DNA of 64,000 bases from a virus (IMGVR_UViG_2609460327_000001:142308-206307); one strand, 5' to 3'. Counted from the stretch's first letter, positions 10,001 to 61,525 are shown. The notes: generated from the sequence alone by a model not told the origin. Numbers and translations are program-made.

Positions 10001-12243
10001 TCATGAGGGCAGACGGCGTTATGGATGTAACACTCACCCCGCCAATGCTAACGAAGGATAATATACCGATTGAAGTTCAGAACTTCTCTTGGAATCGAAT
10101 ATGGGCAACAAGCGGTGAAGGCGTAAACATTCGGATTAACGGTGACAACTCTGTTTCTGCTGAGGTCGATGTGCCGCCGATCATTCCGATTGGAGCACCA
10201 CTCACCCTGCCACTGGAAGGAACAGATAAGATTTATAAGCAGGAAGGTATGAAATCGATGGGCCTTCTTTTCGGGACAGGAAACATTCTCGAGAAGCTAA
10301 ACATTTCATCCAGTGTTCCTGCAAATGAATTGCTTCTGCGTATCGAGAGAGGGGATTCAGCGGGTAACAATCGGGAGAATCGAGTGAACTATCGCTGGCA
10401 TTATAACTGGCAGAACCGAGAATACTTCGAGGTGGATCAGGCAAATCGAGGCGTTAACCGGATGCGCATGAAAAACATCCTGCAGCCGGGAACAACAAAT
10501 GTGATCGAAGGGCTTACGGCTGACCTTGTAGCGTGGACAACTTTCGAAGAGCTAGAGTCAGTGCCGGTGTTGGCCATTAAGATTGATGATGATAAAAAGA
10601 TCGAAATGGAGAAGCCAAAGGTTGAGCGAGACAACACGGAGATCGACAACTGGTATGTACGGGTGAAGAACGGCAGGGTGAAGAAGCGATATGTCCTTCC
10701 TTATTATGAGGCTGGTGAAAAAGTCCCGCAGCTCTATGTATCCTATCCAGAATTGATTCCATACGCTCCGATGAATCCGGAAGAACGAAAAGAAATCATT
10801 ATGGATTATACGGTGCCGGAATATACGAACCAAGAGTTCTACAATGAACCGGTCATTCTGATTGATCGAGAGCATCCTGTCATTCTCAATGATAAAGCGA
10901 TTCAAGTTGGATTCACGCCAATTGCGATGGCATCCGAAGCTGGCGTAAGCTATCTCGAAGTCGAAGCGATCCGAATGAATCAGTCTCGTAAGCTAAGAGT
11001 TTCCGACATCGATGCGAAAAAAGGTATCATTTATCTGCACGATAGGATTCGAGATCAGGACGAAGTGATTGTACGATATGCTTATGTAGAGGATTGGTAC
11101 ACGTACCGCGGGTACAATCGCAGCGGAGAGTTCTTCCATCTGGACTTAAACCCAAGTCCAGGACACCGATTTACGATGGCCCAAGATGGATTTCATGAAT
11201 GGGTGCCGGGAGATGTGACGCTGCGCGAATCGTACACAACGACCGAGAAGCAAAGCAATGAATTATTAGTTAGACAAATGCACGTCTATCTAAGACCCAC
11301 ATCCATCTGGATACAAGAGGAATCAGGACCTCAGCTCATTAGTGGTACAACTCGTAATCAAGCGATCTTCCATACGGATGACAACTACTGGTTTGAGCCA
11401 GATGATTATAACTATGATCCATCCATGCTTCGACTAGGGAAAGTAACAGTCCAAGCCAACTCCAGCCTTAAGAAAGATGTGGTCATTATGGACACCCGGA
11501 CAAGAGGCGGTGGTCTGGATGAAGCATTATCTAAAGCGGTCATTGCCAAGGTAAATAAAGAATCACTTTACCATTGGGATATCGGCTACTTTGATGGAGA
11601 AGCGTATCAGGAAAATGGAGTCATTATTGTTCGGCTCCCGCGCAGTATCCTAGCCACTCCAAATAATCCAAACGGATTTAGTGAAGCTGAAGTGCAAGCA
11701 GCTGTAGCGAAGCATAAAGGATACGGAATCCTGCCGATCATTGAATACTATGATCTGCAGCCAACCGATCTTAACGTGCTTGGTAATCCAGAGTTCCTTT
11801 ACGGCAAGCACCTGAATGAATATAACACGAATCTATCAAGCGGATTATACTTCATTAATCAGCAAGACCTCGGTACTGGCGACAACTCTATCCTTCAAAT
11901 TGAAGAGGGAGGCGTATACGGCATCCTGCTATCCACAGCCAATCTGGAGTACAGTGATTACACTTTGGATATCAAGGCGAAGAAGATGTCTAAGGCGGAG
12001 GATCGTTCGGCAGCTGTCATCCGGTATGTATATCGAAACGGAGAAACGGCAGAAGTACCGATGGCCACAATCAACAGTGAAGACTGGATGATTTATACGG
12101 CTGACATTATGAATGACGGTAATATTGATTCCATCATTATTCAGGTGAACAGCAAGGAAGCTAAAGGTGGCATTCTTGTAGACTATGTTAAGATGTTCCC
12201 GAAATTTACGGAAATAGATGGAGTGGAATTTATAGAATTGTAA
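7072..12243 (+). CDS. Large virion structural protein (about 1720 aa) with a TSP-C-like domain and a C-terminal carbohydrate-binding-like domain
   Basis: Long ORF, NDDDVIGIQF motif. A start at GTG 7093 after gaagggag is plausible. Confidence 0.7.
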   Translation: MKEGRLKVIKDFYRIACIISVKDQNELDKVFVYDDYFTINETMNQAAIGQALCGGMSMQEVFQNQIDDYIQEYGIQPNRVTVVGYQTKSGHKDISVVFYKDGVEQKVQTADGSMKAVAYYHKDERLDYGLELFEFDKALPNGKLSLRVGEQVPTGDVNLAYIHSPRINVEENVSLIDTSSVNENVIPIDQIESLVVPDANGVLSYADVVSDDQPIIMRPPYSRFPSKNINITRRFTQNETVISNALFYKFELKYHYDSDPGEAGKVIRYTGSQIQLTDENGNLLGPEFKRLIYAQATEQNPKIYWVKIYIQSNTDEEQTFKVRYNHVETPAPDEELKSTTKTVELYSNQGNVGLIEGGKLRVINGIGAYEQVTAEDLRAAEDIQEVYSIEEYPDKDGYKITVPQRSMNDPRARNAFNYKLSATYLDDKNNQRTLTFGYVSDWTMNADALLAHEKLEFTGEYKTLGVNIGGGYVDARSLIQSIMPVDMPSLPMDAIFKIEDASGNLLYTTQTASDNGSVESIVAESGSSPAQAKSNTTTAKWTGASGSNVKLKNNPIEHQVTVYPEQQKSEVDFTWEASGSGEIITSQSYQGRWKVCQNVTIEKAFTAKPIDVFTGWDFIGSNETRGKWEYNKARDVLLLTVNKIEVSGYYNGAHKDKENYIFSACVTVNDHNDDDVIGIQFRVNNDKEYYCFLWEKDQLMREPGANGNGVGRVLVDERGVSAVLYYKNPDPNKFNSAYEAETNMTKYMSDYGFKNRKKGIFKASPTTLPPYSDALHPNCQYKSDRTGSSFENITSNVNYNAKGWVPGETYKIRVVVAGSKFQVYIGNDTSDDALGTLVCEAEDSTYSKGSYGICNISQENALWSKLKFTELDVHELCTDWENVTLTSNDWVKVSDKKPADILTPLIEQYMKDTYGNDMPYTVTTPSVVGDPADLRAEVRNDGYIWAVTNSSQAGGTLSTPWLTSDNRKNITGTGKAVMRADGVMDVTLTPPMLTKDNIPIEVQNFSWNRIWATSGEGVNIRINGDNSVSAEVDVPPIIPIGAPLTLPLEGTDKIYKQEGMKSMGLLFGTGNILEKLNISSSVPANELLLRIERGDSAGNNRENRVNYRWHYNWQNREYFEVDQANRGVNRMRMKNILQPGTTNVIEGLTADLVAWTTFEELESVPVLAIKIDDDKKIEMEKPKVERDNTEIDNWYVRVKNGRVKKRYVLPYYEAGEKVPQLYVSYPELIPYAPMNPEERKEIIMDYTVPEYTNQEFYNEPVILIDREHPVILNDKAIQVGFTPIAMASEAGVSYLEVEAIRMNQSRKLRVSDIDAKKGIIYLHDRIRDQDEVIVRYAYVEDWYTYRGYNRSGEFFHLDLNPSPGHRFTMAQDGFHEWVPGDVTLRESYTTTEKQSNELLVRQMHVYLRPTSIWIQEESGPQLISGTTRNQAIFHTDDNYWFEPDDYNYDPSMLRLGKVTVQANSSLKKDVVIMDTRTRGGGLDEALSKAVIAKVNKESLYHWDIGYFDGEAYQENGVIIVRLPRSILATPNNPNGFSEAEVQAAVAKHKGYGILPIIEYYDLQPTDLNVLGNPEFLYGKHLNEYNTNLSSGLYFINQQDLGTGDNSILQIEEGGVYGILLSTANLEYSDYTLDIKAKKMSKAEDRSAAVIRYVYRNGETAEVPMATINSEDWMIYTADIMNDGNIDSIIIQVNSKEAKGGILVDYVKMFPKFTEIDGVEFIEL

Positions 12244-12252
12244 TGCGTTACA
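12239..12252. promoter_or_regulatory. Palindromic operator TGTAATGCGTTACA
   Basis: Copy of the recurrent TGTAA-N4-TTACA motif, overlapping the stop codon and upstream of 12316. Confidence 0.7.
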
Positions 12253-12269
12253 TGATATGATAATACACA

Positions 12270-12299
12270 GCAGCTCGCATATACTGCGGGCTGTTTCTT
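12270..12299 (+). terminator. Hairpin / intrinsic terminator
   Basis: Stem gcagctcgca/tgcgggctgt followed by ttctt. Confidence 0.55.
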
Positions 12300-12315
12300 A
12301 TAAGGAGGAAAAGGT

Positions 12316-14120: not shown

Positions 14121-14567
14121 TTGACGGAGTTAATGAGTCGATATCAGGAAAATGCAGTTCAGAAGCGAATACATCTTCAGGGGATTTTGAAATCTGGCGA
14201 AGACGGGATGAAGTTTGAAGATGGCTATGATACCATTGCCCGAACGATTGCCGGTCAGATAGCGTCTTGTAATGAATCCAGGCATCAACCGGAAGATGAT
14301 TATCGATCAGATTATTCCCTTTGTCTACCGGAAGTTTTCCTCCGATTCTATTTGAGTGACAAGAAAGTCTCGCTGGAAGAAGCAGAAGAAAAGCAGATTA
14401 TGATGTCGATCGGGGAGCTTGATATTTATACGGAATGGTACGGCTATTCAGAGTATACGATTGAAGGGTATTGTGTCGAAAACTTCACCATCGGTAACCA
14501 TGACATTGAATCGATCCTGAAGACGTATAAGGGGAAATACGCACACATCATTATGGAGATTTATTGA
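14121..14567 (+). CDS. Hypothetical protein with MTELMSRYQE leader
   Basis: TTG start after gtgagggga. First 10 aa are identical to those of the previous gene. Confidence 0.7.
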   Translation: MTELMSRYQENAVQKRIHLQGILKSGEDGMKFEDGYDTIARTIAGQIASCNESRHQPEDDYRSDYSLCLPEVFLRFYLSDKKVSLEEAEEKQIMMSIGELDIYTEWYGYSEYTIEGYCVENFTIGNHDIESILKTYKGKYAHIIMEIY

Positions 14568-14590
14568 AGGCAGCTCGTAGGCTGTCTTTA
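14567..14590 (+). terminator. Intrinsic terminator-like hairpin
   Basis: aaggcagc-tcgtag-gctgtcttt. Confidence 0.5.
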
Positions 14591-14610
14591 CATACGAAAG
14601 GAGGAGTGAC

Positions 14611-14925
14611 ATGTTAAAGACTTTAGCTAGGGTGCCACTATTTTGGTTACTGTTTTCTTGGAATATAGGAGTAGTCATCCTTGCTGGTGTTATTATTTAT
14701 AAGTTATTCTTTTGGATTCTTGGGTTTTGGAAGTGCAAGACTTGCAAGAAAGCACATTGGGCTGACACATTATCTTGTAACTATGAGAGCGCAAAAGGAT
14801 ATGTATCAGGTCCTTTCTGTGAAAGTTGCTACATTGTTTTTTTGGAAAGTCGCACAATTAAACCGCCACCGCCCAGCTGGCGACCATCGAAACCAGCACC
14901 ACCGAAACCAAGGAGTGGACAATAA
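14611..14925 (+). CDS. Small membrane protein with CxxC...CxxC zinc-binding motif and Pro-rich tail
   Basis: RBS aaaggagga, hydrophobic N-terminus, CKTC and CESC. Confidence 0.65.
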   Translation: MLKTLARVPLFWLLFSWNIGVVILAGVIIYKLFFWILGFWKCKTCKKAHWADTLSCNYESAKGYVSGPFCESCYIVFLESRTIKPPPPSWRPSKPAPPKPRSGQ

Positions 14926-14927
14926 AG

Positions 14928-17399
14928 ATGAGTAACTATTTAGACCAATTCCTTTCCACGCTCCCGCAGACTCAAAAGCAAAAGCTTATGGAGCTTCTGG
15001 AGTTAAAGCAAAGAGAAGGATACATCAAGAGTGATACCGAGTTCCAAGCCGAACTCGAACGGCTGCTTAAAGTCTTGGATTCAGCGAATGCAACGCCGAC
15101 TTTTCAAGCTCGACACCAAACCGGCAAGACGGATTCCAGAAGTTATAACAGTAACCTTGAAGAGATTGCATTTGATCTCTCTACAATATTTGCAGCTTCG
15201 AACCAGATCGACAGCTTAATGGATGATAATCAGCGGTTGTCACGGTCAATGCTTGCAGACATTCGCAAGAAAATCTATGCCCTTGAAGCAGAGGTTGAGA
15301 AGCAAGCATTGATAATGAAGAACACAGATGGATTCGTAGAAGGAGTCCATGAGCAATTCAAAGCTCCCCAATATACTGAAACTAGCGAATCATCGCTTGC
15401 AATTCTCAGAAAAGATCGCTATGGCCAATATCTAAATAACAAATACAGTGCTGAGATTGTCAGTGACTCACTACAGCTTGCTTCATTCGAAACGATAGAC
15501 CAGCTTAAGAATCCCTATGGAAGAAAGCTGGCATCGATTCAGGTGTTGAACCGGATCGGAACAGTGGCCACAAATAATAATCATCCAATATCTAATGCCA
15601 TAGATGGTTCGCAAGAAACCTTCTGGGCAGAAGTCATTCTGGCCGATGATGTGATTACGCAAAATATCAGTGATCTGTGGACACATGACTATGAAGGCTA
15701 TGAGATGGATGGGGCAATGTGTGAGCTTGAAATTAGGCTGAACGGTATTACGACCGTATCTGAGATTAGCCTTGATCCGTATGCTTCTTATCCTCTTGAG
15801 ATTGTGGCCATTCATGGATATGAATCTTCCGATTACGCAGGGAAGACTTACAAACTCGTTACGCCTAATCATGAGAATCCGCATCAGCGAAGCAAGAAGT
15901 CTGTAGGACAGATGACATTCCAATTCCCATCGGTCGATGTGGCCAAGATTCGTATCCTGCTTCGCCAAGAGAATTACGTAAAAGAAAACTATCTGGTGAA
16001 TGTAGATGAGCAGAACAACATGGAGCTGTGGAATAAAATTGCAGGTTCCGCAGAACTTATGCAGCTCGGCACCGATGCTATTGCCGATCAACGGGAGCCA
16101 GGGGAAACCATTGCTGAGTTCGATAAGAAGAATCAGCTTACAGGCTGGAGCCAATATCTCACAGCGCTTCAAGAGTGGGCTGAAAAGCAGGGCGACAAAG
16201 CGAAGTCTGTTCTAAGTGCTGCCAAGTCAGCCATGGAGCAGGTCAGAATGGGTAACTATCAAAACCCTATGATGCTTGCTCTGCGTTCGATCAGTGCAAA
16301 TACGAATCAAGCTACAGTGGATGAAGGCACACTGAGTCAGCAATATATTGCAGCCAACAAGCTATCCTATCTTTATGGCTTATACAATGTCAGCATTACC
16401 GGGCGGAAGTATTTGCAAAGATCGATCTACGTGTCTGAAGGACTGCCCGTGTCCGGAAATGTGAAACGCATGTCTCTTGTTACAGAGGAGAAGCATCATG
16501 ATATGGATTTAGAGAATGGGGATAAGGCACGGATCACGGATGTTGAGTACTACATCAGCTACAAAAAGAATCCAGAGCCAACTGCATGGCATCCTATTAT
16601 GCCGGCTGGCAAGGATTATGTAAGAGGCGAACTCCTGCTAGGCAGCTCGGTTGGGGGCGATGATTATCTCCTGCAGAACACCATTAACTTCAGCTTTCGC
16701 TTCCCTGTCATCTCTAAAGATACGGTTACTGTCCGGAGAGATGGCGTGCCAATCGGCGGTGACCAATATGTCATTACGGATGATGGAAAGAGAATAGGGA
16801 TCAGGCAATCATTCTATTCTGCTTCCAGCATCTACACTGTAGACTACAAGCCAGCGAACGAGGCTTATTACGTTGACGTGGATGCAGAGACTGTACAGCC
16901 AATGCAGTACATTAACCCACAAGGGGAAACAGGTGAATATTTCAACGGCGTGAATGCGAACAACACGATCACGCTGCAGCATACTCCTTACGTTTACCGG
17001 AGTGAGATCTTCAATTACGACTCACAGAATGACCGCTACACACAAGACAGCAGTCAGCTCAGCATGGATAAACTTTACTATCCGGTTATCGTCCGGGTTG
17101 GCGGAGTGGAGTACAAGAATATCACAGACTATGCTAGTGGCACTTATGATAAGAACCGGCTCCAAAACGAGAACGATGGCAGGAACTTTGCTCAAATTGG
17201 CAACACCCTTTACTTCCCTATTTCCACATTTGATGGAGAGCTGAAAGATATTGTGGTGGACTATTACTACCTCACAACAGACGTTCGATTAAAAGCGATC
17301 CTGCGTAGAAATAGTGCCGGTTACGAGAGCGTTACACCTTCCGTATATAGCTGGTCCATTCGTTGTCAGACTTATGATCAAGAGGTGCGAGATGAGTGA
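14928..17399 (+). CDS. Virion structural protein, coiled-coil plus discoidin-like paralog family
   Basis: DSRSYNSNLEEIAFDL and NAIDGSQETFW motifs shared with neighbouring genes. Confidence 0.7.
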   Translation: MSNYLDQFLSTLPQTQKQKLMELLELKQREGYIKSDTEFQAELERLLKVLDSANATPTFQARHQTGKTDSRSYNSNLEEIAFDLSTIFAASNQIDSLMDDNQRLSRSMLADIRKKIYALEAEVEKQALIMKNTDGFVEGVHEQFKAPQYTETSESSLAILRKDRYGQYLNNKYSAEIVSDSLQLASFETIDQLKNPYGRKLASIQVLNRIGTVATNNNHPISNAIDGSQETFWAEVILADDVITQNISDLWTHDYEGYEMDGAMCELEIRLNGITTVSEISLDPYASYPLEIVAIHGYESSDYAGKTYKLVTPNHENPHQRSKKSVGQMTFQFPSVDVAKIRILLRQENYVKENYLVNVDEQNNMELWNKIAGSAELMQLGTDAIADQREPGETIAEFDKKNQLTGWSQYLTALQEWAEKQGDKAKSVLSAAKSAMEQVRMGNYQNPMMLALRSISANTNQATVDEGTLSQQYIAANKLSYLYGLYNVSITGRKYLQRSIYVSEGLPVSGNVKRMSLVTEEKHHDMDLENGDKARITDVEYYISYKKNPEPTAWHPIMPAGKDYVRGELLLGSSVGGDDYLLQNTINFSFRFPVISKDTVTVRRDGVPIGGDQYVITDDGKRIGIRQSFYSASSIYTVDYKPANEAYYVDVDAETVQPMQYINPQGETGEYFNGVNANNTITLQHTPYVYRSEIFNYDSQNDRYTQDSSQLSMDKLYYPVIVRVGGVEYKNITDYASGTYDKNRLQNENDGRNFAQIGNTLYFPISTFDGELKDIVVDYYYLTTDVRLKAILRRNSAGYESVTPSVYSWSIRCQTYDQEVRDE

Positions 17400-26294: not shown

Positions 26295-28244
26295 ATGCCA
26301 ACAATAGAAAAAGTACTATTTTATTTTGATGATGATAATGTATTTCCTTACGAAATGGACTTCGCTGATGTGCTTGGCAATACCGGTATCAGTACATCGG
26401 AAGGCTATAGTATTGTGCCTGAGATTCAGAGCGCAGACAACCTGACAATCCGCATTGTAAACTTTGCTCCACCGTTGTCCTCACCATCAAGCAAGTTCGG
26501 CAGTCTCTTGGGGATTGCTTATGTTTACGATAATGGGGTAAAGAGTTGGATAGAAGAAGTTGTTCGGTACGGACCTAATTCAAGCAATCTGGAAGTGGCA
26601 ATAGGGGATTGGGTTGACGGAAAAACGATCAGCCAGGTTCGAAGCGATGCCCGGTACCGAAAGCCATACATCGGATATGTTGAAGCACAGGATTATGTAG
26701 AGTACAGAATTGAAGCGTATCAGGACCCACCGCCACCGCATGTACCACTATCAGGAACAATTGATCCTCCCGAAGTACGTATCCGGATTGGAGAAACGGC
26801 CAGCTTCAAGATTACTTTAACCGGTAGCAATACAACCATTAGAGATTGCGATTGGTTCTATGATGCAGACTCAACCATTGTAAGGCCGATCTCGTTCACG
26901 GATTTAACCAATAGTGCTCGTTTTAGCAGAGCAGGAACATATCACGTAACGTATAATGTGAATAATACAATAGGTGAAAATTTCACAATAAGTGCGCCCA
27001 TATATGTCGCTGATCCTGCGCCTATACTCGTTGATATCCTTCAACCAAGTACACACTCTTTGTCGCAAGGTGAGAGTTTGGCCCTCGATGCTATTGCCGA
27101 ATCAGAAGCCGAGATTAGTCTCAGGCGGTGGGATATTCCGACAGGAGTAGATATTCTTAACCAGAATGGGGAGCAGGCTATACTCAGCTTTAATCGTCTT
27201 GGAACGTATACGATCAAGTTCTATGCTGAGAATGTAGAGGGATCGCACGGCGAAGATTCAGTTGTCGTTTCCGTATTGGAACCGCCAAAGAAAAAGCCAG
27301 GAATAGAATTATGGATTGGCACTAATGATGGCCAGGTGCAAGTTAATCCTTCGATTATGATGAATGAGCTGCCGATCAATAAGGATGATATTTTTCTATC
27401 CTACAAAAATAGCGGAGATTCGGCTTGGAAATTTGTCGAATTTAAGGTAGAGGTCGGTGCAGAATCATTCACCTACATGGATGGGCGCACTCAGATACAA
27501 GAATCGGTAACGATTGCTGCCGGTGGAGAATACCGAATCCGCGCAGCACTGCATGATTACGATGCTCGTAAGAGGTATACGATTATTCTTAAGGCTGTCA
27601 TGAATGATGATCAAGGACAAGCACTCACGAGATTCTATGAATTAAGATGGATCGCCACGGCAGATGACGGATACGATCTAGTGATCGTAGAGCGCAGGGA
27701 TGATAATTACCACTACCCAAATATCATGAAGCGTAATGCAAGATATCGGGGGCAGCGCGAATCAGAGAAGGTATTATCTGATCACCAAGAACAGATTTTA
27801 GACATCCGATTGAATCACATGATGATAGAAAATCATACGAAAAATCAAGATGATGCCGTAAAATCGTGGTTTCAGGGGGAAAACGAAGCTGGAGTGGAAA
27901 ATATTACGTATTCTGCAGTAAAAACGTTCAGTATAAATATGGAACAAACCAGTTACCCTCTCATGCCTGGAGTGGCAGAAAGCTCTTTTTCAAGGCTTGT
28001 GGTATTCTTAGATGGAGCAGAACTCAATAGTCCTGGGGATTTTGTGTTCGAAAACGGATATATCAAATTAAAAAGTAACGCGTTACAAATTGGAGATATG
28101 AAAGTCGAGTACACTGTAACGGTTGCGGTGGCCGAACAGAAGATGAACGGCCTTTATCCTGTGGCAAATAGGATGAATCAGATGAATGAGCATTTGGCTG
28201 AATTAGAGAGGAGACTTCAGAGCTATGAGAATGCCTACAAGTAA
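26295..28244 (+). CDS. Virion protein with PKD/Ig-like repeats and C-terminal coiled coil
   Basis: RFSRAGTYHVTY and SFNRLGTYTIKF PKD-like signatures. Confidence 0.65.
   Translation: MPTIEKVLFYFDDDNVFPYEMDFADVLGNTGISTSEGYSIVPEIQSADNLTIRIVNFAPPLSSPSSKFGSLLGIAYVYDNGVKSWIEEVVRYGPNSSNLEVAIGDWVDGKTISQVRSDARYRKPYIGYVEAQDYVEYRIEAYQDPPPPHVPLSGTIDPPEVRIRIGETASFKITLTGSNTTIRDCDWFYDADSTIVRPISFTDLTNSARFSRAGTYHVTYNVNNTIGENFTISAPIYVADPAPILVDILQPSTHSLSQGESLALDAIAESEAEISLRRWDIPTGVDILNQNGEQAILSFNRLGTYTIKFYAENVEGSHGEDSVVVSVLEPPKKKPGIELWIGTNDGQVQVNPSIMMNELPINKDDIFLSYKNSGDSAWKFVEFKVEVGAESFTYMDGRTQIQESVTIAAGGEYRIRAALHDYDARKRYTIILKAVMNDDQGQALTRFYELRWIATADDGYDLVIVERRDDNYHYPNIMKRNARYRGQRESEKVLSDHQEQILDIRLNHMMIENHTKNQDDAVKSWFQGENEAGVENITYSAVKTFSINMEQTSYPLMPGVAESSFSRLVVFLDGAELNSPGDFVFENGYIKLKSNALQIGDMKVEYTVTVAVAEQKMNGLYPVANRMNQMNEHLAELERRLQSYENAYK
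28074..28087. promoter_or_regulatory. Operator-like site inside a CDS (AGTAACGCGTTACA)
   Basis: 13/14 match to the recurrent palindrome, about 140 bp upstream of 28225. Confidence 0.35.
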
Positions 28245-29463
28245 ACCAGGAGGCGCCCAGTTTCGGGGCGCTACTTCTTCCTCGGATTACAATAACAACG
28301 AAGATAATAAATACCTAGAGCTTGTAGAGCTGTATCGACAAAGCAATCTGAACATCCAGAATCTTTCAGAGGCTCATCAGATCATCCTTGCAGCGAATAC
28401 AGCCCTACACAACTATGCGATGATGCTTGAGCGAAAGACCGTAGAGTTAGAAGCACAGATGAATCGAATTGAATCAGCAGGGCCTTACGAGCCGATCTTC
28501 TTCAAGACCGGCTTCGTACAGGATATGACAACGGTTTACCCAAACATCTCCCAAGAGAACGGAGAGACAAGCCTGCGCTGCGATGTGGACTTGAACTACC
28601 GCTATGCAACAGTACCTCTGATTCATCAGATACCAAAGACGCACACGGTCAATGAAAAGAACGGTGCTGTGGTTGTTCCTACGGAGCTGAAGGTTCAAGT
28701 AGGTCGCACGAATACCAAGGGCGAAGTCATTGACAACAACCTGCTTAATGCATTCAACGGAGATAATGAATCTTACTGGCACAGAACAGTAACATATAAT
28801 ATTGCTGAATGTCCGGATCAAGAGGATGTCATCCTTGAGATTGAACTGCCTAGTCATCTAGTAAACAATCTCAACATAAACACGGTGCAGATCCATCCAC
28901 ATCCGGAACGTGGCATTCAGGTCAAGAATGTGGAGATTCATTATAACAGCGCTTGGAATACCATTCAGGGATTTATACAGCCAGATATGGCTGCTGTAAA
29001 CAGCAACGAGTATACACCCCGCAAGAAGTGGTTCTTCCCTGGCGTTCCCGTTCAGAAGATTCGCATTACGTTGGTTCAAAAGAATCCTCTTGATATTGGC
29101 GGTAAGAAAGTATTCGTTCTCGGAGCGCAAGAGATCGGCGTTTACTTGACGATGTTTGAGCCAGGCGGCGGCACAATATTAACACCATTCGATATGGAAG
29201 GCATCTATAACATTGAATCTGTAGAGCACGTCTTTCTCAATCGCGATGCATTTGGTATTGATCGCAACTTGGATCAGCTTATGGAGGGACGAGTTTTTGA
29301 GTACGAATTGCTGAGAGAAGAAGCCGATGGCTTCCTTACTCCCCTCAAGAATACTGAATGGTCAGGTCAGTTTTCGGAGCGGATCTGGGTTCGTACAAAG
29401 CTGCTGATGTACAATGGCGTGAATCCATGCCTTCATGCGGTAAGGCTTAATTATTCTCGATGA
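28225..29463 (+). CDS. Virion structural protein, coiled-coil plus discoidin-like paralog family
   Basis: TSSSDYNNNEDNKYLEL and NAFNGDNESYW motifs. Confidence 0.7.
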   Translation: MRMPTSKPGGAQFRGATSSSDYNNNEDNKYLELVELYRQSNLNIQNLSEAHQIILAANTALHNYAMMLERKTVELEAQMNRIESAGPYEPIFFKTGFVQDMTTVYPNISQENGETSLRCDVDLNYRYATVPLIHQIPKTHTVNEKNGAVVVPTELKVQVGRTNTKGEVIDNNLLNAFNGDNESYWHRTVTYNIAECPDQEDVILEIELPSHLVNNLNINTVQIHPHPERGIQVKNVEIHYNSAWNTIQGFIQPDMAAVNSNEYTPRKKWFFPGVPVQKIRITLVQKNPLDIGGKKVFVLGAQEIGVYLTMFEPGGGTILTPFDMEGIYNIESVEHVFLNRDAFGIDRNLDQLMEGRVFEYELLREEADGFLTPLKNTEWSGQFSERIWVRTKLLMYNGVNPCLHAVRLNYSR

Positions 29464-30309: not shown

Positions 30310-30320
30310 CAATTTTTCTC

Positions 30321-30368
30321 TTGATTCCTAAAATTCAGCGTGCTATCATACAAATGTAACGCATTACA
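30321..30368 (+). promoter_or_regulatory. SigmaA promoter (TTGATT-17-TATCAT, extended -10) with operator TGTAACGCATTACA at +1
   Basis: -35 at 30321-30326, -10 at 30344-30349, operator at 30355-30368. Confidence 0.75.
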
Positions 30369-33570: not shown

Positions 33571-33592
33571 AAGCCGTATGGAAGGAGCAGCT

Positions 33593-40243: not shown

Positions 40244-40257
40244 TGAAATGCATTGCA
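40244..40257. promoter_or_regulatory. Degenerate operator TGAAATGCATTGCA
   Basis: Intergenic, 12/14 match to the recurrent palindrome. Confidence 0.5.
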
Positions 40258-40278: not shown

Positions 40279-40398
40279 ATGTATTGTAAAGATTGTATGT
40301 CTTTTTTTGTTAGCTGCCCCTGCTGTGATGAGCACTTCTGCCCAGACTGTCAGAAGCGTGAGGAAGATATCGAAGAGGAAGAAGAGGAGGAGGAATAA
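40279..40398 (+). CDS. 39-aa Cys-rich microprotein with poly-Glu tail
   Basis: RBS gaaagg; MYCKDCMSFFVSCPCCDEHFCPDCQKREEDIEEEEEEEE. Confidence 0.55.
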   Translation: MYCKDCMSFFVSCPCCDEHFCPDCQKREEDIEEEEEEEE

Positions 40399-40403
40399 TT
40401 GAC

Positions 40404-40883: not shown

Positions 40884-40902
40884 GCAAGGAGAGGTTATTA
40901 AA

Positions 40903-41283
40903 ATGAAATCAGCATTAGAGCAATACTTACTTAATCTAAAGAAAATTAAGAACATGGACGAAATGTATGATGAGATCGGTGCCCTTACTGAAGACACTTT
41001 CAGCAACCATTTCTATGGAGGATACCTGACTCGTGCTTTGGAAACATTCAGCAATTCTGTCGATGGCAAAGACCTGAAACTTGAAATGGTTGTGTTAACT
41101 GAAGCACTGGTCAACAATACTCCTGAAGATGGGGAAGGCGACCCTGTCTATAATGAAGAAGAACGCGATCTGTTTATATTCAAAAAGCTGCGTTCGATTG
41201 GATCAACCGTAACAATGGAGCAGATCAGAGAAGTATGTGATGCTGAAGGAGAATACCTTGATCAGCTTATGAGGACAGAATAA
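40903..41283 (+). CDS. Hypothetical acidic protein
   Basis: RBS aaggagagg. Confidence 0.65.
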   Translation: MKSALEQYLLNLKKIKNMDEMYDEIGALTEDTFSNHFYGGYLTRALETFSNSVDGKDLKLEMVVLTEALVNNTPEDGEGDPVYNEEERDLFIFKKLRSIGSTVTMEQIREVCDAEGEYLDQLMRTE

Positions 41284-41687
41284 TGAATTTAGTCGTATTT
41301 AGTGCCTTATTTATTCTTCAATTTGTTGGCCACAGGATAGGAGATTTTATTCTGCAGACGGATGTTCAAGCTCAAAATAAAACAAAAGACTGGAAGGCCA
41401 GATTACGCCATTGCTTTTCTTACTCTTTATCGGTAAGCCTGCTAACATGGATCCTGTTACCGATACATTATCTCCCTATCATATTCTTAATAACGATCGT
41501 CGAGCATTTTATCATCGATGATCGAAGATTTGTTGTTTGGCTTAAAACAAATATCGAGACAAAAATCGCCAAACAGAAGGAGTTTAATATTAGTACGGTC
41601 CCTGGATTTGTAATTATCGAGATCGATCAAACCATTCATATGATCCGAATGCTATTAATCGCAATTCTTTTCAGCTATATTATGTAG
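41283..41687 (+). CDS. DUF3307-family membrane protein
   Basis: HRIGDFILQT, HFIID and DQTIH motifs. Confidence 0.7.
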   Translation: MNLVVFSALFILQFVGHRIGDFILQTDVQAQNKTKDWKARLRHCFSYSLSVSLLTWILLPIHYLPIIFLITIVEHFIIDDRRFVVWLKTNIETKIAKQKEFNISTVPGFVIIEIDQTIHMIRMLLIAILFSYIM

Positions 41688-41711
41688 CCTTGTATCAAAC
41701 GAAAGGCCTCA

Positions 41712-41759
41712 GCACTATATGTTGGGGTTTTTCGAATGTCAAGACTTTAAATGTAGAAA
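41712..41759 (+). promoter_or_regulatory. Tandem NrdR-box-like sites
   Basis: gcactatatgttgggg (41712-41727) and actttaaatgtagaaa (41744-41759), 32 bp apart, upstream of nrdI-nrdA-nrdB. Confidence 0.55.
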
Positions 41760-41791
41760 AATATAGAATACAATAACAATTGCACACTAAA

Positions 41792-41805
41792 TGTAATGCG
41801 TTACA
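41792..41805. promoter_or_regulatory. Operator TGTAATGCGTTACA
   Basis: Recurrent palindrome just upstream of the nrdI RBS. Confidence 0.75.
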
Positions 41806-41821
41806 AAAAGGAAGGTTTCAC

Positions 41822-42166
41822 ATGTTATTGAGTTATTATTCTTTATCTGGCAAAGCAGAAAGTTTCGTTAAAGAAACAGGAATGCATGCCGTAAGGATTG
41901 GCCCTGCACTTCGAATGCAGCAACCTTATGTGCTGATTACAAGCACTGAAGAAACAGGCAGCTTTCCCGAGGAAGTATCCGACTTTCTTATACATAACCA
42001 TAATCTTATGGTTGGGTGCAGCATTATCGGCCAACACAACAGGGAAGAACTTCATGAATTGAGCCTGGCTGTTCCATACATCTCATCAGATTCTGTTGAG
42101 AAATTTATAAAAGAGGTGAATCAAATTGAGCGCAACACCGTTGAAAGTTACAAAGCCCAACAATAG
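41822..42166 (+). CDS. nrdI: NrdI-like flavodoxin, divergent and shortened
   Basis: YYSLSGK..SFV...PYVLIT.T; located before the RNR genes. Confidence 0.6.
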   Translation: MLLSYYSLSGKAESFVKETGMHAVRIGPALRMQQPYVLITSTEETGSFPEEVSDFLIHNHNLMVGCSIIGQHNREELHELSLAVPYISSDSVEKFIKEVNQIERNTVESYKAQQ

Positions 42167-44453
42167 AGAGCTGGCATTTGACGTCAACCGAATCCAAGTA
42201 TTCGCTGAACGTATTATGGCAGGTTTAAAAGATTCGCAGGGAGAGACCCTGAATATACAGCGCCTAATGCGTGGCGTATTATCCAAGCTCAGATATAAAG
42301 AAGTAACTGCAGATGAGATTACAAATGCATTTACTATGTCTGCACTGGAACTGATTTCAAAAGAAGAACCGAATTGGAAGTTTGCAGCCGCTCGTTCCTT
42401 TTTAACATCGTTATATAAAAAGGCGGCTTTCAATCGTAATTATAAATCCTATACAGATAAACCTTATGGCTCCTTCTATAATCTGATTACTACAATGGTA
42501 GAGAAGAACCTATTCAGAAAAGAACTGCTAGAAGCTTACACCAAAGAAGAGATCGAGGAGCTAGAAGCTACAATATCTCCGGAGAATGATTTGCTGTTCG
42601 ACTATATTGGCCTAATGACATTGAATGAGCGATACCTAACCAGCGACTATGACGGCAATGTGATGGAGCTGCCGCAAGAGCGCTATATGGTTATCGCCAT
42701 GTTCCTAATGCACCAGGAGCCAGCAGAGAAGCGTATGGAGCTGGTTAAAGAATCTTACTGGGCTATGAGCAACCTGTACATGACAGTCGCAACGCCGACT
42801 TTATCCAACGCAGGTAAAGCCACAGGAGGACAATTATCCAGCTGCTTTATCGATACTGTGGATGATTCCCTCGAAGGGATTTTTGATTCCAATACAGACG
42901 TAGCTCGCCTTTCTAAAATGGGCGGCGGCATCGGCGTATATTTAGGCAAAGTTCGATCCAGAGGCTCCGACATTCGTGGTCATAAGAATACTAGCTCTGG
43001 CGTTGTTCCATGGATTCGCCAATTAAATAATACAGCAGTCAGCGTAGACCAACTGGGCACTCGTAAAGGCGCTGTAGCTGTCTATCTGGACGTTTTCCAT
43101 AAAGACATCCTGTCCTTCTTGGACCTTAAATTAAACAACGGTGACGAGCGTATGAGAGCGCATGACATCTTCCATGCTGTCTGTCTGCCGGATCTATTCA
43201 TGGAAGCAGTCCGTGAGCGCGAAGAATGGCACCTGTTCTGCCCTCATGAAGTGAAGAGCATTATGGGATGGACAGATGCAAAGGGGCGTAAATTGGGCTT
43301 AGAAGACTTCTATGATGAGAACCTTGGAAGCGGATCGTTCCGTGAGAAATATGCCGAAGCTGTGGCCAACCCGCTGCTGCCACGCATTACCGTACAAGCG
43401 ATTGATATCATGAAGCGTGTCATGAAGTCTCAGCTTGAGACAGGAACACCGTACATGTTCTATCGTGATACAGTAAACCGGGCGAATCCGAATAAGGCGC
43501 ATGGCATGATATATTCTTCAAATCTCTGCACAGAGATCATGCAGAACCAATCGCCAACAGTGGTCGAGTCCGAAGAGCTTGTAACTAAAGATGGTGAGAC
43601 ACGAATCATCATTTCCAAAATTCCAGGCGACTTTGTTGTATGTAACTTGAACTCAATCAACCTATCCAGAGCCGTTCCAGATGATGTATTAGAACGCCTC
43701 GTTCCAATCCAGGTTCGCATGCTGGATAACGTTATCGACATTAATAACATCGAAGTGCTTCAAGCACAGCATACAAACACTAAGTATCGTGCCGTTGGTC
43801 TTGGAACATTCGGTCTCCATCATTTGCTTGCTCTGCTGAAGATTCGTTGGGAGTCCGATGCGGCTGTTGATTATAACGACACTCTCTATGAGAAAATCAA
43901 CTTCCTTGCGATTAAAACAAGTATGGAGCTGGCTAAAGAAAAAGGAGCCTATCCAAAGTTTGAAGGCAGCGAATGGCAAAGCGGAAATTACTTTACAGAT
44001 CGGAACTACAACACTGCTGAGTGGACTCAACTTGCCGGAGATATCCGTAAATACGGTATCCGCAATGCGAATCTAATTGCAATAGCGCCAAACGGCACCA
44101 CATCCATTATTGCAGGTTCTACAGCTACGATTGACCCTATTTACGAACTCGTTTCTTATGAGGAAAAGACAACGTATAAAGTGGCCAATCCTGCTCCGGA
44201 TCTGAATAACGATACTCTTTGGTATTACAAAACAGCATTCCTGATTGACCAGCACGCCAGCATTAAAATGGCCGGTGCTCGATCAAGACATATTGACCAA
44301 GGACAAAGCTTTAACCTTTATGTAACTCCAGACATCAAAGCAAGTGACCTTTTGAACTTGCATATGGCAGTTTGGGAGAACGGGATCAAGTCCAGCTACT
44401 ATCTCCGAAGCCGCGCATTGACAATTGAAGAATGCGAGAACTGTGCTTCATGA
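42126..44453 (+). CDS. nrdA: Class I ribonucleotide reductase alpha subunit with ATP cone
   Basis: ATPTLSNAG, QLSSC, SNLCTEI, VCNLNSINL, SSYYLR and C-terminal CENC. Confidence 0.95.
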   Translation: MSATPLKVTKPNNRELAFDVNRIQVFAERIMAGLKDSQGETLNIQRLMRGVLSKLRYKEVTADEITNAFTMSALELISKEEPNWKFAAARSFLTSLYKKAAFNRNYKSYTDKPYGSFYNLITTMVEKNLFRKELLEAYTKEEIEELEATISPENDLLFDYIGLMTLNERYLTSDYDGNVMELPQERYMVIAMFLMHQEPAEKRMELVKESYWAMSNLYMTVATPTLSNAGKATGGQLSSCFIDTVDDSLEGIFDSNTDVARLSKMGGGIGVYLGKVRSRGSDIRGHKNTSSGVVPWIRQLNNTAVSVDQLGTRKGAVAVYLDVFHKDILSFLDLKLNNGDERMRAHDIFHAVCLPDLFMEAVREREEWHLFCPHEVKSIMGWTDAKGRKLGLEDFYDENLGSGSFREKYAEAVANPLLPRITVQAIDIMKRVMKSQLETGTPYMFYRDTVNRANPNKAHGMIYSSNLCTEIMQNQSPTVVESEELVTKDGETRIIISKIPGDFVVCNLNSINLSRAVPDDVLERLVPIQVRMLDNVIDINNIEVLQAQHTNTKYRAVGLGTFGLHHLLALLKIRWESDAAVDYNDTLYEKINFLAIKTSMELAKEKGAYPKFEGSEWQSGNYFTDRNYNTAEWTQLAGDIRKYGIRNANLIAIAPNGTTSIIAGSTATIDPIYELVSYEEKTTYKVANPAPDLNNDTLWYYKTAFLIDQHASIKMAGARSRHIDQGQSFNLYVTPDIKASDLLNLHMAVWENGIKSSYYLRSRALTIEECENCAS

Positions 44454-49113: not shown

Positions 49114-49482
49114 ATGTCAACAATAACAAGCAGCACCCGCAAAGAGTCTTTCGATCTGGTTAAACAGGATGTAGCAACTCGTCAGAACATCATACATAGC
49201 TTTCTTCTTCAATATGAAGATGGCTTAACAGCTAACGAAATTGCAGCTAAAATGTACGAGGCTGACCTCTTAAAAGGATGGGATCGCAATCTGGTTCATC
49301 CGAGACTAACAGAAATGACAATGTCCGGAAGAGTAAGAGTTGAAGAAAGAAGAAAATGCAGTATTACCGACCGATCTTGTGGAGTGTATATAGCTGTTAC
49401 TGATGAAGAACTCCAGGCTTATATGGATCAAATCAAAGAACAAGACCTCTTTATAGATTTTTCACAAACTACTGAAAAGTAA
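49114..49482 (+). CDS. Winged-helix DNA-binding protein
   Basis: GLTANEIA...VHPRLTEM...G.V. Confidence 0.6.
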   Translation: MSTITSSTRKESFDLVKQDVATRQNIIHSFLLQYEDGLTANEIAAKMYEADLLKGWDRNLVHPRLTEMTMSGRVRVEERRKCSITDRSCGVYIAVTDEELQAYMDQIKEQDLFIDFSQTTEK

Positions 49483-49484: not shown

Positions 49485-49498
49485 TGTAACGTGTTACA
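49485..49498. promoter_or_regulatory. Operator TGTAACGTGTTACA
   Basis: Recurrent palindrome upstream of the protease gene. Confidence 0.7.
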
Positions 49499-50475: not shown

Positions 50476-50504
50476 TGTTATAATGTAAAACGTAACGCAT
50501 TACA
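50476..50504 (+). promoter_or_regulatory. Extended -10 (TGtTATAAT) followed by operator CGTAACGCATTACA
   Basis: -10 at 50479-50484, operator at 50491-50504. Confidence 0.7.
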
Positions 50505-51361: not shown

Positions 51362-51946
51362 ATGGAAACACTTATCCTGCCGATGATGATGTTCGGGAGC
51401 TATAAGTCTTATGAGAAAGAAAAGGACCCCGTCACTGGAAGATGGAAGATTAAAAAGGAGTTAAACGGCAAGGGCAAGCTAAAGCCAGTGAAGAAAGTTT
51501 ACACCCATGTAGAGGCACTTGGAGACCCTGGTTTCTACCCTTCCGTTAACCATATCTATGAAAATACAGGCAGAGGCGGCAAGAAGCTGACGAAGCCGGC
51601 AGAAGATCTATTTGAAAAATGGCACGCCTTGGCTTATGCTTGGAGCTTAAAAAATGATTGGAAAATGACGACAAAAGATAAAGTGGTTCTTGAACTTACA
51701 GCCTACTTTCCAGATGAGAAGAAACGCGATACTCATAATGTCTTTAAGCTAATGATGGATGCTTTAGAAGGCGTCATTTACAAAAACGACCACTATGCCC
51801 TGCCAAGAGTAAAAGATTTTCACTATTTAGAAAAAGACTGCGGCATTCAGCCTTACTTCGAGCTTCGGATCTTCCGGAAAGCTGACGAGATTGACCCGGA
51901 GGATGTGAGGAAGGAATATGAAGAAGCAAGACGATCCGCTTCATAG
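51362..51946 (+). CDS. rusA: RusA-family Holliday junction resolvase
   Basis: PSVNH...RDTHNVFKLMMDALEGVIYKND. Confidence 0.75.
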   Translation: METLILPMMMFGSYKSYEKEKDPVTGRWKIKKELNGKGKLKPVKKVYTHVEALGDPGFYPSVNHIYENTGRGGKKLTKPAEDLFEKWHALAYAWSLKNDWKMTTKDKVVLELTAYFPDEKKRDTHNVFKLMMDALEGVIYKNDHYALPRVKDFHYLEKDCGIQPYFELRIFRKADEIDPEDVRKEYEEARRSAS

Positions 51947-52697
51947 TTATCTTGAAGAAGGCGATGCCAATCCTCTGATGAGAAGATATCACAAGATGAT
52001 ACGAAGATACAGCAGGCTTCTTGTCTACGGAGAAATGGATTTTAAAAGCTATGATTCTAAGCGATTTATATCCTGCTTCATTCGGGAAGCTGAAATCATC
52101 AATGATCTTTGTAAAGCTGGAGGATGCAAAAGCGAAACGATCGAGAAGGTTTATGATGTCATCAAGAACATTCGAGACACTTTCTCCGTCTATGATATAG
52201 CGGAGATCGAGCATGAGCTGCTAATCGTATTGTTAGAATGTGCGCACTCCTATAAAGAAATGGGATTCGGCTTTAGCCGATATGTATACAGTGTGTTTAG
52301 ATACCGAGTAAAGCGGTTTGTGGATAATAAGATGTTCGAGAGTATGGAAGAAGAGCAGTACTCTTACAAAGATGACCGCTACATAAATGACGATCGAGCC
52401 ATAGACAGCATCATAGAAAACAGGTATTATTATGAGCCTCTAAATATGGAGGTTGATGAGTATACTGAACTGGACAATATTCTGTGGTTGAACGGCATAG
52501 TAGGTAGCGATTTGTTCAAAGAACTGAGTTATAGCGAAAGATTTATTCTTCTTAAGGCTTACGATGAAGGCATGACAGATAGAGAGATTGCTCGAATTAA
52601 CGGGCTCCATCATCGATCTGTTTATCGCATTCGAAAACGAATCGCTGATAGCTTCCGCGAAAAACGTGTAAAGGGAGAAATAAAATGTCTACGATGA
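51918..52697 (+). CDS. Sigma-70 family RNA polymerase sigma factor (phage-encoded)
   Basis: Region 4 LSYSERFILLKAYDEGMTDREIARINGLHHRSVYRIRKR; region-2-like GFSRYVY. Confidence 0.75.
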   Translation: MKKQDDPLHSYLEEGDANPLMRRYHKMIRRYSRLLVYGEMDFKSYDSKRFISCFIREAEIINDLCKAGGCKSETIEKVYDVIKNIRDTFSVYDIAEIEHELLIVLLECAHSYKEMGFGFSRYVYSVFRYRVKRFVDNKMFESMEEEQYSYKDDRYINDDRAIDSIIENRYYYEPLNMEVDEYTELDNILWLNGIVGSDLFKELSYSERFILLKAYDEGMTDREIARINGLHHRSVYRIRKRIADSFREKRVKGEIKCLR

Positions 52698-52933: not shown

Positions 52934-52950
52934 GTTTATCTCCGCTTTTC
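52918..52950 (+). terminator. Intrinsic terminator
   Basis: Stem aagcggagataa/ttatctccgctt followed by tt. Confidence 0.7.
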
Positions 52951-52952
52951 TC

Positions 52953-53005
52953 TTGATTCCTTCTATTATCTCGTTTATAATTGAAATGTAACGCATTACA
53001 TTTCA
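52953..53005 (+). promoter_or_regulatory. SigmaA promoter (TTGATT-17-TATAAT) with operator tgaaaTGTAACGCATTACAtttca at +1
   Basis: -35 at 52953-52958, -10 at 52976-52981, operator core at 52987-53000. Confidence 0.8.
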
Positions 53006-58505: not shown

Positions 58506-58531
58506 TATAATCAAAAATGTAATGCATTACA
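58506..58531 (+). promoter_or_regulatory. -10 TATAAT followed by perfect operator TGTAATGCATTACA
   Basis: -10 at 58506-58511, operator at 58518-58531. Confidence 0.75.
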
Positions 58532-59946: not shown

Positions 59947-59966
59947 CACAGGGGGAGATACAGGGG

Positions 59967-60706: not shown

Positions 60707-60712
60707 AGTGAT

Positions 60713-61330
60713 ATGAAGAAAATGTTCATCATAGCCCTTGAGGGACTTGATAAGAGTGGGAAAGCCACTCAAGCAAAGCTGCTTACTGAAGCATTGCGGG
60801 AGAAAGGTCTCAAGGTAGAGCAGAGTGAGTTTCATCGGTATGATACGCCAACCGGAGAGCTCATCGCAAAATGGCTTCGTAAGGAATACCCTGTTAGCCA
60901 AGCTACTATCGAGCTGATCATGGCAGCCGATAAGCATGCTCAACAAGAATACTTCAATGAACTAGAAGCTGCCGGTGTAGATGTACTAATCCTAGATCGC
61001 TATACTCTAAGTCAATTTGTTTATGGCATAGTGAATGAAATGCCATATGATTGGTGCGAAAAGCTTCAGGAGCTTTTACGTAAGCCAGATATGGATATTG
61101 TTATTGAAATTCCACCAGAGCTCAGCATGGAGCGAAAAGGAAAGCATAATGGCGGTGTTAATGATCGTTATGAATCTGATCTTAATTTGCTTCATCAAGT
61201 TAGCTTTGCCTATCGAATCTTCAGAAGAAAAGATCATCCAATTATAGATGGAAATGCGCCGATCGAGGATGTTCATGAAGAAATTAAGAAGGAAGTCATC
61301 GCAAGACTTAAAGACGAGGACATCCTATAA
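60713..61330 (+). CDS. tmk: Thymidylate kinase
   Basis: P-loop EGLDKSGKATQ, ILDRY and DRYE motifs. Confidence 0.9.
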   Translation: MKKMFIIALEGLDKSGKATQAKLLTEALREKGLKVEQSEFHRYDTPTGELIAKWLRKEYPVSQATIELIMAADKHAQQEYFNELEAAGVDVLILDRYTLSQFVYGIVNEMPYDWCEKLQELLRKPDMDIVIEIPPELSMERKGKHNGGVNDRYESDLNLLHQVSFAYRIFRRKDHPIIDGNAPIEDVHEEIKKEVIARLKDEDIL

Positions 61331-61335
61331 TACTA

Positions 61336-61360
61336 AGCCACCAGCAATGGTGGTTTTTTT
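61336..61360 (+). terminator. Intrinsic terminator
   Basis: gccacca-gcaa-tggtggt followed by a T run. Confidence 0.8.
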
Positions 61361-61501
61361 CTTCCGCCGATAGGCGGCAAAGGGAGAGGGGCAGCTAAAA
61401 AAGGTTTGACGCCGAGAGGTAGAATGTGGCATGATTGCTTCTTTTAACATTGGATGTCTTTCTATTATGAATTTTTCATACACTGAAATAATTATATGTA
61501 T

Positions 61502-61525
61502 TGTAATGCATTACATTTCATTATA
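61502..61525 (-). promoter_or_regulatory. Leftward -10 TATAAT followed by perfect operator TGTAATGCATTACA
   Basis: attata at 61520-61525 on the + strand, operator at 61502-61515. Confidence 0.65.

Follow-up and report, generated by a model that had tools for sequence, protein, structure and literature searches.

The 64,000-nucleotide stretch analysed here (the window) is the last 64 kb, bases 142308-206307, of IMGVR_UViG_2609460327_000001, a 206,307 bp phage record that we denote G000 (linear; CheckV completeness 100%). A palindrome of 14 bases, TGTAAYGCRTTACA, is dispersed at the predicted promoters of many of its operons and recurs throughout G000 and in a clade of related phages. Its enrichment, intergenic bias, register with the -10 box, conservation upstream of orthologous genes and confinement to phage DNA lead us to read it as an operator regulon: the palindrome is probably a DNA operator recognized by a symmetric dimer of a phage winged-helix regulator, which would shut many operons at once. 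From these sequence data we infer that a protein binds the palindrome, that its binding represses transcription and which protein is the likely binder. Two phage proteins are the main candidates: P0001, a short MerR-type winged-helix domain, and P0002, a winged helix followed by a long helix.

A palindrome dispersed over the phage genome

Six exact copies of TGTAAYGCRTTACA are found in the window (starting at 12239, 30355, 41792, 52987, 58518 and 61502), compared with a mean of 0.00 in 100 dinucleotide-preserving shuffles. When up to two mismatches are allowed the count rises to 15, against a shuffle mean of 0.79 and a largest value of 3; the additional copies carry one mismatch (28074, 49485, 50491 and 32461) or two (40244, 7866, 22878, 44949 and 45113). 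An initial annotation of this DNA had listed ten positions, and a copy is present at each of them (six exact, three with one mismatch and one with two). It had counted the copy at 28074 as the only intragenic one; this copy is indeed there, but 32461 (one mismatch) and 7866, 22878, 44949 and 45113 (two mismatches) had been missed. Over the whole 206,307 bp of G000, 13 exact and 17 one-mismatch copies are present. The repeated palindrome is real, and stronger than first described: one palindrome does mark many promoters, as had been claimed for the window, but its extent is genome-wide and clade-wide.

When the flanks of the copies are symmetrized, the consensus extends to aAW-TGTAAYGCRTTACA-WTt. 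The centre is GC in every exact copy of the window, and position 6 of the half-site is C in 40% of cases in G000 and in 5-25% in the other genomes. Covariation of this position with changes in the helices of P0001 and P0002 was unusable, the independent lineages being too few. A literature search for the string TGTAATGCATTACA found no paper.

Intergenic location and register with promoters

Copies were assigned as intergenic or intragenic from crude gene calls made with our own caller. Intergenic DNA makes up 8.5% of G000 but holds ten of its 13 exact copies (p = 4.5e-9), and the same bias is observed in the five relatives studied. The nine window sites initially described as intergenic are broadly so, except that the copy at 12239 overlaps the final 5 nt of the preceding open reading frame (ORF) and those at 50491 and 61502 fall within tiny, doubtful called ORFs.

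A TATAAT-like hexamer ends 3-7 nt upstream, on either side, of 47 of the 92 intergenic copies (at most one mismatch) in six genomes, and the distance from the -10 box to the palindrome peaks sharply at 5 nt (20 cases). Visible -35 boxes fit the 17 nt sigmaA spacing (for example TTGATT-17-TATAAT at 52987). The initial annotation had placed the palindrome 4-6 nt after a -10 box at five window sites. This is what we find at 30355 (5 nt after TATCAT) and, after TATAAT, at 50491 (6 nt), 52987 (5 nt) and 58518 (6 nt); at 61502 the TATAAT, 4 nt away, is on the minus strand. It had also pointed out a common -35 sequence at two promoters: the 16-mer TTTTCTCTTGATTCCT occurs exactly twice in G000, at window positions 30314 and 52946, each time in the -35 region of one of these two promoters (30355 and 52987).

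As the palindrome starts about 5 nt past the -10 box, it would span about -1 to +14, a position over +1 that fits repression, as had been suggested. In the mechanism that we propose, a symmetric dimer of a phage-encoded winged-helix regulator would bind the palindrome and, because the latter begins about 5 nt after the -10 box, the bound protein would cover the transcription start of host-type (sigmaA-like) promoters. Binding would thereby shut off together the operons for replication and nucleotide metabolism, that of the phage sigma-like factor, the lysis genes and several tail operons. Most copies lie downstream of the -10 box and not within the promoter spacer. The copy at G000 65632, where the two gene arms diverge, is placed in the spacer and -10 box of a rightward TTGTCA-17-TACAAT and, at the same time, 5 nt past a leftward TATACT, so that one copy sits on two divergent promoters.

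With starts about 7 nt after the -10 box, the palindrome would lie at the extreme 5' end of many transcripts, and it might act there as an RNA hairpin, as a stability or processing signal. Such a role appears extremely improbable. The hairpin of the 14-mer is predicted at only -0.5 kcal/mol, and a form at -3.4 kcal/mol needs bases upstream of the likely start; the copies in promoter spacers (G000 65632, and 77857 in phage SPbeta) would not be part of the transcripts from those promoters. Moreover, a protein dimer would account for the strict twofold symmetry of the DNA and for the unconstrained YGCR at its centre.

Conservation in a clade of large phages

The major capsid protein of G000 shares 61% identity with that of Moorella phage MTATph1 (W01), for which a literature search found no paper, and 47% with that of Bacillus phage 0305phi8-36 (W02). 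Leftward from about 65.4 kb, G000 encodes DnaN, SNF2 helicases, DnaG, a UvrD-like protein, ThyX, RecA, UDG and many small ORFs. Rightward from 65.7 kb come an actin-like protein, the capsid, giant tail proteins and a holin, then a second replication block (primase-like, DnaB-like, RNR, sigma-like factor, Cas4-like, RemA-like, DnaE, amidase and thymidylate kinase). A 1210-residue ORF at G000 60892-64524 is a homolog of gp99 of 0305phi8-36, a putative RdRP-family single-subunit RNA polymerase; its G003 and G011 orthologs score above the cut-off of the Pfam family PF05183.

A capsid-based search of IMG/VR gave 24 related loci, and 18 records were scanned for the motif. It is present in 16 of these 18 virus records, with 10-25 copies per complete genome and none in any of them for a reversed-pattern control; further carriers are G020 (17 copies) and contig 2 of G279 (five exact copies). 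The motif-bearing genomes range from 34 to 52% GC and their proteins are mostly 30-65% identical. The motif-less relatives are G011, G018 (a fragment), G019, MTATph1, 0305phi8-36 and the metagenome-assembled G023. Palindrome and k-mer scans of G011, W01 and G019 found no other dispersed palindrome, and the same scans recovered the motif in G000.

The copies are found upstream of the same orthologs: in all six genomes compared for two genes (12316 and 30436 in the window) and in five of the six for seven more (the Cas4/DnaE operon, the RusA/sigma operon and five operons outside the window). Such retention across diverged genomes constitutes a phylogenetic footprint of a functional site. The main window sites are as follows.

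12239-12252, no strand assigned: exact copy TGTAATGCGTTACA, 64 nt before gene 12316, with TAGAAT immediately upstream
28074-28087, no strand assigned: one-mismatch copy within ORF 26295-28244, 144 nt before the start of gene 28225-29463
30314-30368, plus strand: TTGATT-17-TATCAT, then 5 nt and an exact copy (30355-30368), ahead of the 400-residue gene 30436 and of primase-like and DnaB-like genes
32461-32474, no strand assigned: one-mismatch copy inside the primase-like ORF, of doubtful function
40244-40257, no strand assigned: degenerate copy (two mismatches), intergenic, 147 nt before gene 40404
41792-41805, plus strand: exact copy before the NrdI-like/RNR operon, with TACAAT 17 nt upstream
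49485-49498, plus strand: one-mismatch copy, 44 nt before subtilase (S8) gene 49542
50491-50504, plus strand: one-mismatch copy 6 nt after TGtTATAAT, heading the operon with RusA (51362-51946) and the sigma-like gene (51918-52697)
52946-53000, plus strand: TTGATT-17-TATAAT, then 5 nt and an exact copy (52987-53000), ahead of Cas4-like, RemA-like and DnaE genes
58518-58531, plus strand: exact copy 6 nt after TATAAT and 27 nt before amidase gene 58558
61502-61545, minus strand: exact copy 4 nt after a minus-strand TATAAT, in a unit reading toward hairpins at 61337-61385

Copies are also found ahead of the RNR large-subunit gene in G003, G014 and G012, 46-52 nt ahead of the subtilase ortholog in four of the six genomes, and at the amidase site (58518) in G004. 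The intragenic copy at 28074 keeps its offset to the next gene start (144-145 nt) in G004 and G013, that is, in three of the six genomes, and may be an internal promoter or operator rather than a chance copy. The copy at 32461 has no counterpart at orthologous places in the genomes compared, and gene 40404, downstream of the 40244 copy, is not conserved in the relatives. The 'SSAP' label initially given to the gene that follows 30355 is not confirmed, as this gene (30436) has no Pfam or PHROG match.

The lineage suggests another meaning for the motif. In 0305phi8-36, a 21 bp 'promoter candidate' is described in 14 intergenic spaces and not in the host genome, and is tentatively assigned to the gp99 polymerase (PMC2147016). 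The palindrome could likewise be part of a phage-specific promoter, used either by the gp99/YonO-like polymerase or by the host polymerase with the phage sigma-like factor: the clade encodes both a gp99 homolog and a sigma-like protein, and the motif stands in a fixed register with the upstream hexamer. However, the motif has a perfect dyad symmetry that is foreign to promoters, its flanking elements match the sigmaA -35/-10 consensus with 17 nt spacers, and at G000 65632 it is inside the spacer and not downstream of the -10 box. The polymerase homolog is also encoded by the motif-less G011 and W02, and 0305phi8-36, although of the same lineage with its 47% identical capsid protein, has no copy of the palindrome and no P0001. 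We therefore consider a promoter element improbable and retain the operator. It should be noted that exact 12-mer counting of NC_009760 did not recover the published 21 bp motif of 0305phi8-36; the 12-mers that occur most often in this genome form hairpins (xCGTGCGAACGx', three variants with 18 copies in all) and are probably terminator loops.

A phage-only palindrome, also found in SPbeta

One motif-bearing relative is the whole 197,999 bp contig of a 3.6 Mb isolate genome (record title Alicyclobacillus shizuokensis NBRC 103103). All ten copies with at most one mismatch in this carrier genome are on the phage contig of about 198 kb and none is elsewhere. In the same class, 288 of 301 genomes have no exact copy, in line with a reversed control that matched 11 genomes once each; the 13 genomes with exact copies include the carrier (three, all on the phage contig) and G279 (five, all on one contig). 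The data support the palindrome being a conserved functional element that is phage-specific, and not a host cre-like site.

The palindrome also occurs twice in phage SPbeta of Bacillus subtilis (NC_001884), where about 0.004 exact copies are expected by chance from base composition. The exact copy at 77857-77870 (2358-2371 of our locus L134) is annotated 'palindrome' and overlaps the TACAAT -10 box of the yopM (sroA) promoter; a one-mismatch copy at 77773-77786 (L134 2274-2287) lies about 30 nt after the AimR repeat ATCACT-N25-AGTGAT. Both are between aimP and yopM, and SPbeta has copies in this aimX/yopM control region only. No homolog of P0001 or P0002 was found in SPbeta.

Could a host transcription factor, CcpA-like or other, be the reader, the phage tapping a host circuit? 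Host CcpA had been named initially as a possible binder, and the palindrome has the same length as the cre box and similar outer arms. The SPbeta copies, in a phage with neither candidate protein, would fit such a factor, as would the retention of the motif across phages of 34-52% GC, and thus probably of different hosts. Against this, the centre is GC and not the CG known as nearly invariant in cre, relatives without P0001 are also without the motif, and the carrier and class-wide counts above reveal no host regulon, which makes host CcpA unlikely. A host reader of any kind is, in our view, highly improbable, and a phage-encoded regulator is preferred.

Candidate readers

Three phage proteins had been put forward in the initial annotation as binders (encoded at 62064-62612, 49114-49482 and 40404-40883). 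None of them has a tblastn match at E <= 1e-4 in five motif-bearing complete relatives, and their relaxed Pfam matches are all below threshold. With no match in these five genomes, the three were set aside as the common binder. By contrast, tblastn finds P0001, P0002 and a third protein, P0003, in all five motif-bearing relatives and in none of the motif-less ones.

P0001 (80 residues; G000 34074-34316, minus strand, outside the window) consists of an N-terminal MerR-type winged helix (MerR_1, PF13411; 42.3 bits for a cut-off of 21.6, E = 8.2e-11), and its best sequence match in the PDB is a MerR protein (4ua1, 1.1e-4). The AlphaFold2 model (pLDDT 83) has a MerR-like fold with HiNmlR, CadR, CarH, BmrR, BldC and RacA as Foldseek neighbours; this Foldseek search gave no PDB match below E = 1e-3. 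P0001 is present in eight of eight motif-bearing genomes (G000, G003, G004, G012, G013, G014, G020 and contig 2 of G279), whereas a profile of the family has no match in G011, G019, MTATph1 or SPbeta and gives no more than an E = 0.025 match in 0305phi8-36; a single-protein search found nothing in the motif-less G023. The gene order is RecA-UDG-[P0001]-P0002, with P0001 in motif-bearing genomes only. A tblastn search of a phage collection with P0001 gave two weak Enterococcus phage matches. Word-indexed protein searches gave 3 and 4 matches only. P0001 ranks first among the candidates, and we tentatively favour it as the binder, at a little less than an even chance.

Among known proteins, P0001 resembles RacA and TnrA/GlnR, which are also MerR-type winged helices without the usual effector domain and with dyad sites. 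RacA recognizes 14 bp inverted repeats, and TnrA and GlnR recognize TGTNA-N7-TNACA sites whose half-site resembles TGTAA. The P0001 model superposes on RacA bound to DNA (5i44_A) with a root-mean-square deviation of 2.2 over 61 columns (E = 4.1e-2). Unlike P0001 in the proposed role, however, RacA has its role in organizing the origin of the chromosome and does not repress promoters; the TnrA/GlnR spacing is 7, compared with 4 here, and neither TnrA nor GlnR appeared in a PDB sequence search with P0001 (E <= 1).

P0002 (212 residues; G000 32611-33249), the downstream neighbour of P0001, ranks second. It could be an autoregulated repressor reading the palindrome, with P0001 in an accessory role, such as that of a Cro-like partner or an anti-repressor; this we judge rather unlikely, although less so than the promoter or host readings. 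Its model shows a winged helix, a 70-residue helix (coiled coil) and a small beta hairpin, an arrangement that would suit an obligate dimer. In G000 its gene has its own terminator-insulated promoter with two or three degenerate copies of the palindrome over the -10 region; degenerate copies are found in all five orthologous promoters inspected, and thus in all six genomes looked at. Residues S72, A74, T75, R78 and A79 of the recognition helix are invariant in eight of eight clade members, and distant family members match HTH_24, MarR and IclR models. In sequencing run X3, which is only presumed to be RNA, the contig of greatest depth over the 10 kb analysed spans the P0002 gene and its leader. 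On the other side, there is no Foldseek match below E = 1e-3 for P0002 and its own Pfam matches are below threshold. Moreover, the family profile finds full or partial homologs in motif-less genomes (G011, 5.6e-17; G019, 2e-14; W01, 1e-8; W02, 8e-9). In these four genomes the recognition helix is nearly the same and the promoters have no such palindrome, which argues against P0002 as the specificity determinant; the family is thus part of the lineage's core genes. The profile searches in this way weakened the case, favoured by tblastn, for P0002 as sole determinant. Third in rank, and improbable, is that P0001 and P0002 both act on the same sites.

An MpsC-like gene (PF10057) lies between the two in G000 (33533-34030; 14533-15034 of locus L002). 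The gene has a terminator of its own and a perfect TTGACA-17-TATAAT promoter that carries no palindrome; found in none of the relatives, it is a moron-like insertion. The contigs of run X3 cover L002 13353-14359, 14584-14956, 15107-15358 and 15642-15792; they leave the remainder of the 10 kb uncovered, from which nothing follows.

Several observations weigh against a single-repressor operator regulon read by P0001. First, the sites are not uniform: three of the 13 exact copies in G000 escape the intergenic rule (two inside or overlapping ORFs and one in a doubtful 38-residue ORF), and 45 of the 92 intergenic copies have no -10-like hexamer at 3-7 nt, so the copies do not all obey one rule. Second, P0001 is short: it is without the long dimerization helix and the effector domain of MerR proteins, and its terminal helix has only 16 residues (64-79), which leaves the formation of a symmetric dimer uncertain. 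The operators of MerR proteins are, in addition, normally in the -35/-10 spacer (19-20 bp) and not at +1. Third, the co-occurrence of P0001 and the motif comes from one clade and may reflect a single evolutionary event. P0003 (window 34709-35227) has the same presence/absence profile as P0001 by tblastn, and no DNA-binding signature was found in it. Fourth, the SPbeta palindrome, in a phage without P0001 or P0002, implies a different reader at least there. Finally, searches of G000, G003, G004 and G013 revealed neither a tyrosine nor a serine recombinase, so that classical lysogeny would be no more than a possibility.

Carriage and the proposed silenced state

G012 does contain a tyrosine recombinase, and other features of the clade suggest persistence. 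Mapped onto relatives that have terminal repeats, the two extremities of G000 fall inside these genomes, about 20 kb from each other; being internal there, they indicate a permuted whole genome without host flanks. G000 encodes an actin-like segregation protein and a replication-initiator-like gene. The phage sequence forms its own contig in two isolate assemblies, the window sequence being on a 190 kb contig of a 5.8 Mb assembly from which it may derive, and six relatives are classed as provirus. These features point to stable carriage, possibly as an episome. For the silenced state that the operators would impose, we lean towards episomal lysogeny, but the sequence data are just as compatible with a temporal shut-off in the course of lytic growth.

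Comparison with known dispersed-operator systems

The design of dispersed operators is already known from P1 C1, the L5 stoperators and the SPbeta SPBRE; the present motif and clade are new. The stoperators are asymmetric, are read by a monomer and stop elongation within operons. In cluster A phages such as L5, numerous sites for the gp71 repressor across the genome are reported to down-regulate lytic expression (PMC9283540). Unlike these, the sites described here are symmetric and on predicted promoter start sites.

P1 C1 is described with 22 dispersed operators (PMC8546580). The resemblance lies in a large phage with plasmid-like carriage, in P1 and possibly here, and one operator in many copies at the promoters of many operons. 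On the other hand, the P1 operator is asymmetric and read by C1, whereas the present site is a perfect dyad and its candidate readers (MerR-type and winged helix) show no relationship to C1 at the level of Pfam domains.

In SPbeta, the SPBRE is a short motif at about ten promoters that was proposed from sequence long before its reader MrpR (YopR/SroF) was found by chromatin affinity purification with sequencing (ChAP-seq) and electrophoretic mobility shift assays (EMSA) (PMC10516654). Here too, one master repressor would act on dispersed sites in a large phage genome, as in SPbeta, a Bacillus phage. MrpR has a tyrosine-recombinase fold, however, and no ORF with Phage_integrase (PF00589) was found in G000, G003, G004 or G013. 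The repeated element that we find in SPbeta, AAAAATATGTATATA-like with 6-7 copies, differs from the present palindrome; we infer that it is the SPBRE.

Finally, the flanked motif often reads ATGT-N8-ACAT, the canonical PadR repeat (PMC3506622). A PadR reader was rejected: there is no PF03551 match in the six frames of the genome at E <= 10, and the flanking A is found at 15 of 26 symmetrized positions (58%).

Significance of the proposed regulon

To our knowledge, gene control in Firmicutes phages of about 200 kb is almost unstudied; we know of no characterized member of this lineage other than 0305phi8-36, and of no explanation for the phage-specific promoter motif proposed in it in 2007. The present analysis provides a crisp operator, conserved target promoters and a two-gene shortlist of readers across at least eight genomes. 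Since one motif-bearing genome is in a culture-collection strain, the regulon is directly testable.

If P0001 is the reader, a new protein class would be added to the phage master repressors, and the gain of a small gene could rewire about 30 promoters. We may wonder whether more is at stake. A subclade of 0305phi8-36-like phages of about 200 kb, persisting in Bacilli isolates, might have gained a stand-alone MerR-type domain between UDG and a core winged-helix gene, together with about 30 identical dyad operators silencing host-polymerase promoters. The master repressor of such a regulon would then belong to a protein type that is not known to act as one. As the same 16 bp palindrome is found in SPbeta without P0001, the site may further belong to a wider, still unrecognized operator/reader pair in the lysis-lysogeny switches of Bacilli phages. 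This scenario as a whole is speculative and we consider it doubtful. In any case, the identical palindrome in the SPbeta arbitrium/sro switch is an unexplained element of a model system, and an ordinary repressor-operator set would still have value for promoter and operon annotation in a poorly known phage group.

Other features of the phage genomes

The site at 61502 belongs to a minus-strand unit of about 150 nt (within 61331-61625), placed between the terminator of the thymidylate kinase gene and that of a minus-strand island. It has no convincing ORF, a 52-residue GTG ORF being without a ribosome-binding site, and scans of the window found no Rfam family and no tRNA; the unit may be a small RNA under the same control.

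Two further loci were observed: an ORF with a Tad2-like (Thoeris anti-defence 2) domain at window 39185-39508 (PF11195, 7.6e-17), and, at G000 40314-42245, a ThiF-like E1 beside a prokaryotic E2 (Prok-E2_D), forming a ubiquitin-like conjugation pair in a phage genome. The motif-less G011 carries a CRISPR array at contig positions 31-3968, with 59 copies of a repeat of about 30 nt, spacers of 36-38 nt and three consecutive identical spacers.

The helix-turn-helix (HTH) gene at 62064-62612 (minus strand) has a consensus TTGACA-17-TATACT promoter (in 62612-62672) directly followed by an inverted repeat, ACCCAACA-N6-TGTTGGGT, which differs from the palindrome and may be an operator serving only this gene's own local circuit, distinct from the regulon and next to the replication-initiator-like gene 62915-63907. 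A second minus-strand TTGACA-17-TATACT, in 62740-62885, leads to an 11-codon ORF and a strong terminator; this unit may be a small RNA or encode a leader peptide.

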